64,000 nucleotides of DNA, from assembly GCF_003018255.1 (NCBI RefSeq), contig NZ_CP027440.1. One strand, 5' to 3'. This document shows, piece by piece, positions 5,732 through 29,038 of the stretch. Position 1 is the stretch's first letter; every line of letters begins with the position of its first letter. The notes below the pieces were generated by a model that worked only from the letters and a program-made list of their open reading frames with translations, had not been told where the DNA came from and searched no databases. This stretch comes from Escherichia coli (lineage in GTDB: Bacteria > Pseudomonadota > Gammaproteobacteria > Enterobacterales > Enterobacteriaceae). The translations under genes and the position numbers were made by a program.

Positions 5732-8236
5732 TTATTCCTTCGGTTTAAACCGCAGCAACCGGTTGGCGTTACTCACTACGGTAATCGACGAGAGCGCCAT
5801 TGCCGCTCCGGCGACCACCGGGTTAAGCAGCGTACCGGTGAACGGCCACAAAATACCGGCGGCGACCGGAATACCAATGCTGTTGTAGATAAACGCACCG
5901 AGCAGGTTCTGCTTCATGTTGCGCAGCGTTGCGCGGGAAATTGCGAGCGCATCCGCAACACCCATCAGGCTATGGCGCATCAGGGTAATCGCCGCGGTTT
6001 CAATGGCAACATCACTGCCGCCACCCATCGCAATACCGACATCCGCCTGAGCCAGCGCTGGCGCATCGTTAATGCCGTCGCCCACCATTGCTACCTGACG
6101 TCCTTCACTTTGCAGACGTTTGATCGCTTCGGCTTTACCGTCTGGCAGCACGCCGGCTATCACCTCATCAATCCCTGCTTCTTTAGCGATCGCATTGGCG
6201 GTGGTCGGGTTATCCCCGGTTAGCATCACCAGGCGATATCCCGCTTTATGCAGGCGTTGCAGCGCCGCCACGCTATCACTACGCAACGGATCGCGTACAG
6301 CCAGCAGGGCTACCGCTTTCCCGTCAACCGCCAGCAGCACAGGCGTTGCCCCTTGCGATGCCTGAGCTGAAATATCTGCTTCAATTGCTTTGGTATCGAC
6401 CTGTTGGTCATTTAACAGCGCCTGATTACCCAGCAATACCGCATGACCTTCAGCTTCACCGCTCACACCCAGCCCGCGCAATGTGCGGAAACCGTTGACC
6501 TGCGGCAGCTGCATATCACCTGCTTTATCGAGGATCGCCCGTGCCAGCGGGTGGCTGGAACCTTGCTCCAGCGCCGCCGCCAGACGCAGCGCCTGCGCTT
6601 CATCAACATCAGCAAATGTTTTTACTGCGACAACCTGCGGCTTCCCTTCGGTCAGCGTCCCGGTTTTATCGAACACCACGGTGTCGAGCGTACTGGCGCG
6701 TTGCAGCGCGTCGGCGTCCCGCACCAGCACGCCAAACTCAGCCGCCCGCCCGACGCCCGAAATAATCGACATCGGCGTCGCCAGTCCCAGCGCACACGGA
6801 CAGGCGATAATCAGCACCGTGGTGGCAATCACCAGGGTATAAACAATTTGCGGTGCCGGGCCAAAGAAATACCAGATTGCCGCACTGACCAGCGCAATGA
6901 CTACCACCACCGGCACAAACACAGCGGAGATTTTATCCGCCAGTTGACCGATTTCTGGCTTGCTGCTCTGGGCCTGTCGCACCATGCGAATGATCCGTGA
7001 CAGCGTAGTATGGCTGCCGACCGCACTGGCGCGAAACAGCACACTGCCGTCCTGTACCACTGTCCCGGCATGGACGCTATCGCCTTCGCCTTTTTGCTGC
7101 GGGATTGGTTCGCCCGTCAGCATCGCTTCATCCAGCCACGCTTCGCCCTGGGTAATTTCACCATCTACCGGCACCCGATCACCCGTCGTCAGGCGCAGCA
7201 ACATACCTGGCTGAACATCTGCCAGCGGCACGTTTTTTTCACCTTCGTTGGTGACCAGGCGCGCCGTCGGTGGGGTTAAATCGAGTAATTTCTCCAGCGC
7301 CTTAGAAGAACGCTGACGTGCGCGCGCTTCCAGCATATGACCGAGATTAATCAGACCGATAATCATCGCACTGGCTTCATAGTAAAGATGTCGCGCTTCC
7401 ATCGGGAACCACTGCGGCCACAGGTTGACGCTCATTGAATAGAGCCACGCCACGCCCGTACCCAGCGCCACCAGCGTATCCATCGTCGCTGCACCGTTCA
7501 GCAGGCTTTTCCATGCGCTGCGGTAAAAATGGCCGCCGGCGAAAACCATTACCGCCAGGGTTATCAGGCCGATAACCAACCACAGGCTGCGGTTGTCGGC
7601 GGTGACCATCATGTTATCGCCGATCATCCCCCAGACCATCACCGGGATACCCACCGCCAGTGCGACAATCGCCTGCCAGCGGAAGCGCTTCATCGTAGCG
7701 ACGGCGGTTTCTTGCTGGCGCTCGCGGCGTTTAGCGTCATCTTCAATCGCTTCCGCGCCGTAGCCCGCTTTTTCCACCGCCTGCACTAAATCTTGTGGGG
7801 AGGCACTGCCCATCACCAGCGCAGTACGCTCCGCCAGGTTTACCCGTGCCTGAGTGACGCCCGGTACGCTTTGCAACGCATTTTGTACGCGGGTGACACA
7901 GCTGGCGCAGCTCATGCCGCTCAGCAGCAACTGCTGGCTGTCATCGTCATCGGCGGTCGCTGCCGGAAGCGCCTCAGAAACCGCTGTCAGTGCTTCCGAC
8001 GGGATTGATGACTCCGCCAGCGGTTTAGCCTTTGGGTGGCTTACAGATGCGTCATAACCCGCTTGTTTGATGGTTTCGATCAGCTGTTCTGCACTGGCAG
8101 TCCCGGTAACGTGCGCTTCAGTGACAGACACATCCGCCTGCTCAACATCCGGGCGCTGTTCGAGACTTTCTTTCACGCGTTTAACGCAGTGACCGCAGGA
8201 CAGGCCGTCCAGGGTCAGGTCGATAGTTTGTGACAT
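5732..8236 (-). CDS. copA: Cu(I)-exporting P-type ATPase
   Basis: 834 aa, two N-terminal GxxCxxC metal-binding domains, CPC motif, DKTGT phosphorylation motif. Confidence 0.97.
8030..8036 (-). other. slippery heptamer C_CCA_AAG at copA codons 67-69, site of programmed -1 frameshift giving the CopA(Z) chaperone
   Basis: heptamer located by frame arithmetic from the copA start; function from literature. Confidence 0.55.
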
Positions 8237-8284
8237 AAAACACTCCTTTTAAGACAGTTTTGACTGGCTGTGATAAAGGTTAAA

Positions 8285-8303
8285 CCTTCCAGCAAGGGGA
8301 AGG
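8285..8303 (-). promoter_or_regulatory. CueR operator inside MerR-type copA promoter (19-bp spacer)
   Basis: dyad ccttccagcaaggggaagg between ttgacc (-35) and taacct (-10) on the copA strand. Confidence 0.75.
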
Positions 8304-8498
8304 TCAAGAAATTAATAAACCAGGCGGGTAAAAGTCCGTAAAGATTAAAAAATCGGCTCGATTTGCATCAGGATTAGACATTTATCTCTTTGTTTTCCTG
8401 TAGTTAAGTTGCGGGTGCTAAGTTAAATCAGGATGCCTGAAAATTGGCACCGGGGTGAGGAATTACCTCCCGCATCTATAAAAAGGAGTTAACAAAAG

Positions 8499-10850: not shown

Positions 10851-11258
10851 ATGAACATTAGCGATGTAGCAAAAATTACCGGCCTGACCAGCAAAGCCAT
10901 TCGCTTCTATGAAGAGAAGGGGCTGGTGACGCCGCCGATGCGCAGCGAAAACGGTTATCGCACCTACACGCAGCAGCATCTCAACGAACTGACCTTACTG
11001 CGCCAGGCACGCCAGGTGGGCTTTAACCTGGAGGAGAGCGGCGAACTGGTGAATCTGTTTAACGATCCGCAGCGTCACAGCGCCGACGTCAAACGTCGTA
11101 CGCTGGAGAAAGTGGCGGAGATCGAACAGCATATCGAAGAACTGCAATCCATGCGTAACCAGCTGCTGGCGCTGGCGAATGCCTGCCCCGGTGATGACAG
11201 CGCCGACTGCCCGATTATCGAAAATCTCTCCGGCTGCTGTCATCATCGGGCGGGGTGA
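10851..11258 (+). CDS. cueR: MerR-family Cu-responsive regulator
   Basis: 135 aa, N-terminal MerR HTH, C-terminal Cys pair (CPGDDSADC). Confidence 0.95.
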
Positions 11259-26263: not shown

Positions 26264-29038
26264 CAGTTAACGGCGGTGGTGTACCCGGACGGGCTGGAGA
26301 GCAGCCGGGCATATGATGAGCTGGACAGACTGGTATCGGAGACATCGCGCAGCGGGGAGACAGTACGCTACCGCTACGATGACGTGCACAGTGAGTTACC
26401 GGCGACGACAACGGATGCGACGGGCAGCACCCGGCAGATGACCTGGAGCCGCTACGGGCAGTTGCTGGCCTTCACCGACTGCTCGGGCTACCAGACCCGC
26501 TATGAATACGACCACTTTGGTCAGATGACGGCGGTCCATCGTGAGGAAGGCATCAGCACGTACAATACCTATAACCCGCGCGGCCAGCTGGTCAGCCGGA
26601 AAGACGCACAGGGCCGTGAAACGCGGTATGAATACAACGCCGCAGGCGACCTGACTGCCGTTATCACCCCGGACGGCAACCGGAGCGAGACACAGTACGA
26701 TGCGTGGGGAAAGGCGGTCAGCACCACGCAGGGCGGGCTGACGCGCAGTATGGAGTACGATGCTGCCGGACGTGTCATCAGCCTGACCAACGAGAACGGC
26801 AGTCACAGCGACTTCAGCTACGATACGCTTGACCGGCTGGTACAGCAGCGCGGCTTTGACGGGCGGACGCAACGTTATCATTATGACCTGACCGGAAAAC
26901 TCACGCAGAGTGAAGATGAGGGGCTTGTCATCCTCTGGTACTACGATGAATCGGACCGTATCACTCACCGCACGGTGAACGGCGAACCGGCAGAGCAGTG
27001 GCAGTATGATGGCCACGGCTGGCTGAGAGAAATCAGCCACCTGAGCGAAGGCCACCGTGTTGCCGTCCACTATGGCTACGACGATAAGGGCCGTCTGACC
27101 GGGGAGCGCCAGACGGTGGAGAACCCGGAGACGGGGGAACTGCTGTGGCAGCATGAGACGAAACAGGCATACAACGAACAGGGGCTGGCAAACCGCGTCA
27201 CGCCGGACAGCCTGCCGCCGGTGGAGTGGCTGGCCTATGGCAGCGGTTATCTGGCGGGCATGAAGCTGGGCGGGACGCCGCTGCTGGAGTACACGCGCGA
27301 CCGCCTGCACCGGGAGACGGTGCGCAGCTTCGGCAGCATGGCAGGCAATACAGCCGCATATGAACTGACCAGCACTTACACCCCCGCAGGCCAGTTACAG
27401 AGCCGGCACCTGAACAGCCTGGTGTTTGATTGTGACTATAACTGGAATGACAACGGCGACCTGATGCGCATCAGCGGCCCGCGACAGACGCGGGAATACG
27501 GCTACAGCGCCACGGGCAGGCTGGAGAGCGTGCGCACCCTCGCACCGGACCTGGACATCCGCATCCCGTATGCCACCGACCCGGCGGGCAACCGGCTGCC
27601 GGACCCGGAGCTGCACCCGGACAGTACACTCACAGTGTGGCCGGATAACCGAATCACCGAAGACGCGCACTACCTGTACCGTTACGATGAATACGGCAGG
27701 CTGGCGGAGAAGACGGACCGCATCCCGGCGGGTGTGATACGGACGGACGACGAGCGGACCCACCACTACCACTACGACAGCCAGCACCGCCTGGTGTTCT
27801 ATACGCGGATACAGCATGGCGAGCCACTGGTCGAGAGCCGCTACCTTTACGACCCGCTGGGCCGCCGGACGGGTAAACGGGTGTGGCGTCGCGGGCGTGA
27901 CCTGACAGGATGGATGTCGCTGTCGCGTAAACCGGAGGAGACGTGGTACGGGTGGGACGGCGACAGGCTGACGACGGTGCAGACTGACAGCACGCGTATC
28001 CAGACGGTGTACCAGCCGGGAAGCTTCACACCGCTCATCCGCATCGAAACAGACGTGACCGAACTGGAGAAAGCGCAGCGGCGGAGCCTGGCGGAGAAGC
28101 TCCAGCAGGAAGGGAGCGAGGACGGACACGGCGTGGTGTTCCCGGCTGAACTGGTGCGGCTGCTGGACAGGCTGGAGGAAGAAATCCGGACAGACCGCGT
28201 GAGCAGTGAAAGCCGGGCGTGGCTTGCGCAGTGCGGGCTGACGGTGGAGCAACTGGAAAAACAGGTGGAGCCGGAATATACACCGGCGCGAAAAGTTCAT
28301 CTTTACCACTGCGACCACCGGGGCCTGCCGCTGGCGCTTATCAGCGAAGACGGCAATACGGTGTGGAGCGCGGAGTATGATGAATGGGGAAACCTGCTTA
28401 ATGAGGAGAACCCGCATCATGTGTATCAGTCATACCGTCTGCCGGGGCAGCAGCATGATGAGGAGTCGGGGCTGTACTACAACCGGAACCGGTACTACAA
28501 TCCGTTGCTGGGACGATATATTACTCAGGACCCGATTGGGCTGGCGGGGGGATGGAGTCTGTATGCGTATCCGCTGAATCCGGTGAATGGTATTGATCCA
28601 TTAGGATTAAGTCCTGCAGATGTAGCGTTAATGCGAAAAAAAGAACAATTAAACCATCAAAGAGCATGGGATATATTATCTGATACTTATGATGATATGA
28701 AGAGATTAAATTTAGGTGGGACTGATCAATTTTTCCATTGTATGGCATTTTGTCGAGTGTCTAAATTAAATGACGCTGGTGTTAGCCGATCAGCGAAAGG
28801 GCTGGGTTATGAAAAAGAGATTAGAGATTACGGGTTAAATATGTTCGGTATGTACGGCAGAAAAGTAAAGTTATCCCATTCTGAGATGATTGAAGATAAT
28901 AAAAAAGACTTGGCTGTAAATGAACATGGGTTGACATGTCCATTAACACAAGATTGCTCAAATAGATGTATTGATTATATTAATCCAGAGCATAAAAAAA
29001 CGATAAAGGCTTTACAAGATGCTGGCTATCTCAAGTAA
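26264..29038 (+). pseudogene. rhsD: rhs C-terminal portion: YD-repeat core, DPxGL boundary, variable toxin tip
   Basis: reading frame resumes ...[14 protein letters not shown]... immediately after the IS; no native start codon. Confidence 0.85.
28610..29038 (+). other. Rhs C-terminal variable (toxin) domain, unrecognised family
   Basis: begins just after DPLGL (about 28595-28609); sequence turns abruptly AT-rich; His/Cys-containing ...[10 protein letters not shown]...[11 protein letters not shown]... Confidence 0.5.

Follow-up and report, generated by a model that had tools for sequence, protein, structure and literature searches.

In the dnaX gene of E. coli, the source of tau and gamma, the slippery heptamer A_AAA_AAG is preceded by a Shine-Dalgarno-like element and accompanied by a simple stem-loop. 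In copA of E. coli K-12, the described system closest to the locus analysed here, -1 frameshifting reportedly yields a protein named CopA(Z) (Meydan et al. 2017, Mol Cell 65:207), and the same outcome of frameshifting in copA is said to have been obtained by Drees et al. 2017 (Mol Microbiol 106:635). Experiments have demonstrated the frameshift in E. coli copA, and independent work has confirmed it (PMC9548414, PMC5009743, PMC7558416, PMC6771820); ribosome profiling and an independent study back the E. coli result, whereas the parallel claim made for human ATP7B has lost favour (PMC9548414). The same paper describes an artefact of fused dual-luciferase reporters, which StopGo separation avoids. 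The efficient -1 shift gives a product of 70 amino acids (PMC5009743), and it is the premature termination following the programmed shift that produces CopA(Z), a copper chaperone (PMC6771820, PMC6747150). In copA, the shift depends on the joint action of the slippery sequence, a pseudoknot and the nascent chain (PMC7558416), and single-molecule studies have employed the copA pseudoknot as a model stimulator of frameshifting (PMC6182138). Both dnaX and copA are chromosomal genes in which a heptamer of the form X_XXA_AAG and a downstream RNA structure direct a -1 shift (PMC10861913, PMC6771820), and in both a stop codon is reached almost at once after the shift, so that one gene specifies a second, shorter protein. 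Unlike dnaX, copA has C_CCA_AAG and a pseudoknot, and no Shine-Dalgarno-like element is seen in the 20 nt before its heptamer. The copZ genes adjoining copA in Bacillus and Enterococcus lead to the same outcome, namely, a pump accompanied by a chaperone of about 70 amino acids with the HMA fold (PMC7558416, PMC10187127), but a stand-alone copZ is a separate gene with its own stop codon and involves no recoding, unlike E. coli copA.

We analysed a window of 64 kb of E. coli DNA, the whole stretch presented above, whose plus strand reads CTTTGGG at 8030–8036 and whose minus strand accordingly reads CCCAAAG; copA and the elements of its cassette and promoter are all on the minus strand. We are highly confident that what lies here is the cassette for programmed -1 ribosomal frameshifting in E. 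coli copA, through which both the pump and the 70-aa CopA(Z) chaperone are made. The site has been described before (Meydan et al. 2017; Drees et al. 2017) and is carried here by an ordinary E. coli allele. In comparison with K-12 copA, the gene, the heptamer, its phase, the -1 stop codon, the 70-aa product and the promoter with its operator are all the same, and only strain-level differences are found. The first-pass annotation had relied on the reported early termination of copA translation by -1 frameshifting to give CopA(Z), on which the literature agrees with it (PMC5009743, PMC6771820).

According to the list of open reading frames, the only long frame over the site runs from ATG to TAA at 8236–5732 and encodes 834 amino acids. 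It is the zero-frame coding sequence of a copper-exporting P-type ATPase (5732–8236), as identified from its translation, its Pfam domains (two N-terminal HMA domains followed by E1-E2 ATPase and HAD hydrolase) and its annotation as copA in all matching E. coli genomes, the region being present in 5422 of 5426 complete genomes. The heptamer C_CCA_AAG (8030–8036) starts at nucleotide 201 of copA and occupies nucleotides 201–207, that is, the third base of codon 67 followed by codons 68 and 69, CA[C CCA AAG], which specify H67, P68 and K69. Frame arithmetic thus bears out the earlier placement of the heptamer at codons 67–69 in coordinates, strand, phase and codon numbers, and the sequence conforms to X_XXY_YYZ in the correct phase just past the first metal-binding domain (MBD1). 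No Shine-Dalgarno-like element was seen on reading the 20 nt upstream of the heptamer. The bare string CCCAAAG is uninformative on its own, because it occurs eight times on both strands of the window, about as often as expected for any 7-mer. In-phase occurrence is more telling: CCCAAAG appears in phase anywhere in copA in 1.9% of 5000 synonymous-codon shuffles, and both CCA (8 of 35 Pro codons) and AAG (7 of 28 Lys codons) are minority codons in the gene. Among the open reading frames of at least 150 amino acids in the window, an in-phase X_XXA_AAG is found twice, at the copA site and as G_GGA_AAG in an Rhs core frame, where the -1 stop codon is 39 codons off.

After a -1 slip, copA would be read as CCC AAA GGC TAA. 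The TAA (8025–8027) lies one codon past the slip, following GGC (8030–8028), and the search for a nearby -1 frame stop that the first-pass annotation had proposed therefore has a positive answer. The predicted coding span of CopA(Z) is 8025–8236, comprising codons 1–69 in frame 0 and then, in the -1 frame, GGC (Gly) with the stop codon TAA; its translation is a product of 70 amino acids and about 7.5 kDa that ends in ...SHPKG, the Gly being diagnostic of the -1 frame. Residues 8–62 of this product match positions 3–62 of the 62-position Pfam HMA profile (E=8e-14), and the motif CGHC is present at residues 14–17, so that CopA(Z) comprises a complete CxxC-containing HMA (ferredoxin-like) domain. 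Moreover, its sequence matches CopZ-type chaperones and metal-binding domains of ATPases with solved structures. Given the coverage of the profile and these matches, CopA(Z) corresponds to a whole folded domain and not to a fragment. The 70-aa protein is nonetheless missing from gene tables, since standard pipelines give only the 834-aa coding sequence.

Downstream of the heptamer, the copA mRNA is predicted to be capable of forming an H-type pseudoknot that starts after a 6-nt spacer, GCUAAA (8024–8029). In this model, stem S1 is formed by CCGCUG (8018–8023) and CAGCGG (7981–7986), with 8023–8018 pairing with 7986–7981, whereas the 5' arm of stem S2, GUCGGAAGC (7992–8000), lies within the loop closed by S1 and pairs with the 3' arm, GCUUCCGGC (7962–7970), 8000–7992 being opposite 7970–7962. 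S1 has six Watson-Crick pairs and S2 has seven, or nine pairs once a G-U and another G-C are counted. With the stems as derived here, the element would represent a stimulatory pseudoknot located a few nucleotides past the heptamer. A copA-like pseudoknot, defined by two stems of no fewer than 6 and 7 Watson-Crick pairs and by a spacer of 4–9 nt, was found in only 5 of 3000 dinucleotide-preserving shuffles. By contrast, RNAfold run without pseudoknots found the region downstream of the heptamer to be no stabler than shuffles (z = -1.1), which is expected because the program cannot represent a pseudoknot; with the nested fold at the level of shuffles, it is the pseudoknot model, together with the comparative data given below, that speaks for a structure.

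Within E. coli, the cassette shows little variation. Its 73 nt (8036–7964) are 100% identical in 5348 of the 5422 complete genomes that carry it, K-12 MG1655 included, and the 34-nt core with the heptamer and the stop codon is matched in 5412 of 5426 genomes. In the one variant that was inspected, from strain GN4738, GCG is replaced synonymously by GCT within pseudoknot loop 1, at a position that also varies between genera. The copA gene of the window differs from K-12-type copA at 101 of 2505 nucleotides, yet no difference falls between gene nucleotides 113 and 360. I38V is the sole amino-acid change with respect to K-12 in CopA residues 1–329, residues 39–69 being identical, and ten further changes are found beyond residue 329. 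Upstream of copA, the sole difference from K-12 is one extra A in the 5' UTR, before the Shine-Dalgarno sequence. I38V or the 5'-UTR variant could tune the ratio of pump to chaperone in this strain.

To extend the comparison beyond E. coli, copA sequences from 12 Enterobacteriaceae and Erwiniaceae were collected by a contig search and by protein matches with contig look-ups, representing Citrobacter, Enterobacter (two), a Klebsiella-like sequence, Salmonella, Cronobacter, Erwinia, Buttiauxella, Pantoea, Mixta, E. coli and one further taxon; several of these loci come from low-quality assemblies with fragmented gene calls. The contig search itself was dominated by MVGDGIND, a universal motif of P-type ATPases, and the 80 loci that it returned included three from Enterobacterales (Citrobacter, Enterobacter and Photorhabdus). 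C_CCA_AAG is present in phase in all 12 taxa, even though residue 67 varies (H, S or R), and in all 12 a -1 stop codon, TAA or TGA, is located exactly one codon past the heptamer. The residues encoded in the zero frame over this stop differ among the taxa (AK, AN, PD, SD, PE and AE), and an invariant -1 stop under changing zero-frame residues is the pattern that selection on the -1 frame would be predicted to leave. The stems are maintained as well: S1 is paired in 100% of alignment cells, with one G-U pair, and S2 in 95%, compared with 23–50% in slid controls, although deriving the stems from the E. coli sequence favours such pair counts across taxa. Furthermore, S1 has undergone two compensatory double changes, from C-G to A-U in Erwinia and from C-G to U-A in Pantoea, whereas most pairs of S1 and S2 are invariant and do not covary. 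The proposal of the first-pass annotation to look for a downstream structure thus led to a candidate pseudoknot that is rare in shuffles and kept across genera with compensatory changes.

The full-length copA genes of E. coli, Citrobacter and Enterobacter were compared pairwise at the codon level; their mean synonymous divergence is 0.436 over the whole gene and 0.435 in the part encoding MBD1 upstream of the heptamer, but drops to 0.0 in codons 65–84. Indeed, the lowest 15-codon windows of synonymous divergence in the entire gene are all found at codons 66–92, a stretch that opens with the heptamer and closes with the S2 3' arm. These comparative results constitute independent support, obtained from sequences only, for the published copA mechanism.

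Alternatively, most of the short MBD1 protein might stem from a truncated copA transcript of its own, frameshifting playing a minor part. We regard this as unlikely, although the title of Drees et al. 2017, as it appears in the reference lists of PMC7558416 and PMC10187127, names 'differential transcript formation' beside frameshifting; the papers retrieved in our literature search give no detail of the short transcript. In E. coli the S1 hairpin is followed by UUUCU, but this U-rich sequence is not conserved in other genera, and a terminator scan detected nothing terminator-like past the heptamer on the copA strand. Moreover, translation of such a transcript would still depend on the -1 stop codon to release a defined 70-aa product, and the two mechanisms have been reported as coordinated and not as exclusive.

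A second alternative accepts the synonymous conservation of codons 66–92 and attributes it to an overlapping RNA function other than frameshift stimulation, such as a translational pause for membrane targeting, a site for an sRNA or an RNase, or mRNA stability. Loop 1 of the pseudoknot (8017–8001) is nearly invariant in Enterobacteriaceae, an invariance for which a simple pseudoknot model has no need, and a search of Rfam found no family over the copA element, only chance matches far under the gathering scores, which leaves some room for such a function. Nevertheless, the bounds of the conserved block coincide with the start of the heptamer and with the S2 3' arm, the pairing of S1 is preserved by the compensatory changes, a spacer of 6 nt is what -1 frameshift stimulators typically have, and stimulation has been ascribed to the pseudoknot in the copA literature (PMC7558416, PMC6182138), all of which makes this explanation very improbable. 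Finally, that the heptamer is a mere by-product of coding for His-Pro-Lys, without meaningful frameshifting, is hardly credible: these residues can be so encoded without any recoding function and the string occurs at a chance rate in the window, but its two codons are minority choices in copA, frameshifting has been demonstrated experimentally in E. coli (PMC9548414, PMC5009743), and this reading is excluded for practical purposes by the heptamer that stays invariant where residue 67 changes, by the -1 stop kept in all 12 taxa and by a synonymous divergence of zero against 0.44 gene-wide.

Under programmed frameshifting, most ribosomes would read through the heptamer and synthesize the 834-aa copper pump, whereas a fraction would stall over C_CCA_AAG as the pseudoknot 6 nt downstream resists unwinding. 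With CCA in the P site and AAG in the A site, the Pro and Lys tRNAs could then slide back by one base and pair with CCC and AAA. The slipped ribosome would read GGC, meet TAA and release the first HMA domain as a 70-aa protein, which would act as a soluble copper chaperone for the CopA pump. For the strain studied here, the sequences show the elements of the cassette and their conservation, whereas slippage, its efficiency, participation of the nascent peptide and action of the product as a chaperone are inferred. Since the stop codon, the pseudoknot and a cassette identical to that of K-12 are all in place, and in view of the published E. coli experiments, the strain probably makes both CopA and CopA(Z), as had been proposed at the outset.

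The surroundings of the gene are those of a K-12-type locus. The putative copA promoter and CueR operator (8277–8307), read from the sequence, are the same as in K-12-type copA: TTGACC (8307–8302) and TAACCT (8282–8277) are separated by a 19-nt spacer, and the dyad ACCTTCC-N7-GGAAGGT (8304–8284) sits within the spacer region. We take this dyad to be the binding site of CueR, PcopA being a MerR-type promoter with a 19-bp spacer. A simple sigma-70 scan made no call at the copA promoter; its spacer limit was 16–18 nt, as against the 19 nt present here. The promoter and operator would provide the context for copper-induced expression of both the pump and the short product. In the K-12-type locus cueR is found near copA, and a 135-aa open reading frame (10851–11258) is at the corresponding place in the window; indeed, the frames upstream of copA, of 310, 430 and 135 amino acids, have the size and order of glsA, ybaT and cueR as annotated in the K-12-type locus. 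Domains, annotation and promoter all fit a CueR-regulated Cu(I) P1B-type ATPase as the host gene of the frameshift cassette. Overall, the strain has a normal cue/copA copper-defence locus, from which both pump and chaperone are to be expected.

As regards the wider distribution of the device, the taxa that retain the cassette range from Escherichia to Erwinia, Pantoea and Mixta, and S1 covaries among them. The copA gene of Photorhabdus has neither the inter-domain linker nor the heptamer, and 30 distant homologues of CopA, all with HMA at the N terminus, gave no comparable combination of a heptamer and an immediate -1 stop codon. A Bacillus sp. locus (L029), where copA comes after a 68-aa copZ and a terminator-like hairpin that has a T-run, gave the appearance of a heptamer; the candidate was rejected, as the apparent heptamer is the T-run of the hairpin after the separate copZ. 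It is conceivable, although we consider it doubtful, that the recoding cassette of copA is no peculiarity of E. coli but a module evolving across the whole order, which has moved and changed in lineages with more metal-binding domains.

Several observations, made on poor assemblies or on protein sequences only, concern such lineages and hint at variants of the same frameshift device in Plesiomonas and in multi-domain relatives. In a poorly assembled Plesiomonas sequence, a run of five A's is found at the junction of two frames, and a second Plesiomonas protein reads ...TVKKPDPEG... across this junction, which together imply A_AAA_AAG CCT GAT with TGA in the -1 frame (GCC TGA). Plesiomonas copA thus probably carries A_AAA_AAG and a -1 TGA after the third HMA domain. 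A different hairpin, CCGGAG/CUCCGG, would lie there at the same 6-nt spacing. If this reading is correct, Plesiomonas would make a soluble chaperone of three domains. In the protein sequences of other relatives, [Y/H]-P-K-[S/T]-E-P-L is found after two domains and, should the same device operate there, these relatives would make two-domain chaperones.

The region that encodes the N-terminus of CopA is nearly universal in E. coli, and we found no match to the 5' region of copA in only four of 5426 complete genomes of the species. Two of the matches in this collection are located on plasmids, and the chromosome of strain TW10590 (H29) carries two copies of the region. Moreover, about 10 E. coli genomes contain the 73-nt cassette (window positions 8036-7964, minus strand) but differ within the 34-nt core that encompasses the heptamer and the -1 stop. 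The 70-aa frameshift product, CopA(Z), is absent from the annotation of all three RefSeq (PGAP) E. coli records inspected, including a K-12 MG1655 assembly, the sole annotated copA product in these records being the 834-aa CDS. Within the cassette, loop 1 of the pseudoknot (8001-8017, minus strand; GCGGAGUCAUCAAUCCC) comprises the 17 nt between the 5' arms of S1 and S2. Its synonymous sites display nearly no variation among Enterobacteriaceae. Such invariance is not required by a simple two-stem pseudoknot model, and loop 1 may make additional contacts or hold another signal.

Among CopA relatives, three N-terminal fragments (P0071, P0052 and P0122) have two HMA domains followed by the motif [Y/H]-P-K-[S/T]-E-P-L. 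Judged from the protein sequence, this motif could be encoded by C_CCA_AAG NCT GAA with a TGA in the -1 frame, and because of this fit it suggests that the source genes would give rise to frameshift products carrying two metal-binding domains. In copA of Plesiomonas shigelloides (GCA_027622815.1), two reading frames meet at GTAAAAAGCCTGAT (positions 1469-1482 of locus L091); copA has many further frame breaks in this assembly. Since the Plesiomonas protein P0121 runs through the junction as TVKKPDPEG, the true sequence at this point is probably GTA AAA AAG CCT GAT. The corrected gene would then probably possess an A_AAA_AAG heptamer, with GCC TGA in the -1 frame, located after the third HMA domain; a putative stem, CCGGAG/CUCCGG, probably follows 3' of these elements after a 6-nt spacer. 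In copA of Photorhabdus caribbeanensis (L004, 1501-1830), the first HMA domain almost abuts the second, and this stretch has neither a PKAKPL-type linker nor a slippery heptamer. Thus, the frameshift cassette is missing in at least this member of Enterobacterales.

Two of the differences between the window and K-12-type copA concern the 5' UTR and codon 38 (minus strand). In the 5' UTR, the A-run directly 5' of the GGAG Shine-Dalgarno sequence consists of four A's (8247-8250; CTTAAAAGGAG), compared with three in the K-12-type gene (CTTAAAGGAG). Codon 38 (8123-8125) is GTC (Val) instead of the ATC (Ile) of K-12-type CopA, which is the sole amino-acid difference across residues 1-329. Residue 38 belongs to the part of the nascent chain that would lie close to the distal end of the exit tunnel once the ribosome is at the slip site.

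Among window ORFs of at least 150 aa, the only in-phase X_XXA_AAG besides that of copA is G_GGA_AAG at 26707-26713 (plus strand). It lies inside a 920-aa ORF for an Rhs core protein (26276-29038, plus strand), and the -1 stop is found 39 codons 3' of the heptamer. The ORF matches the NCBIfam profile RHS_core with a score of 1657 bits, under the curated cut-off of 2000 bits, and the match includes only the part of the 1261-position profile from position 486 onwards. This Rhs gene may lack its N-terminal part, be interrupted by a frame break or have its start further 5' in a different frame.
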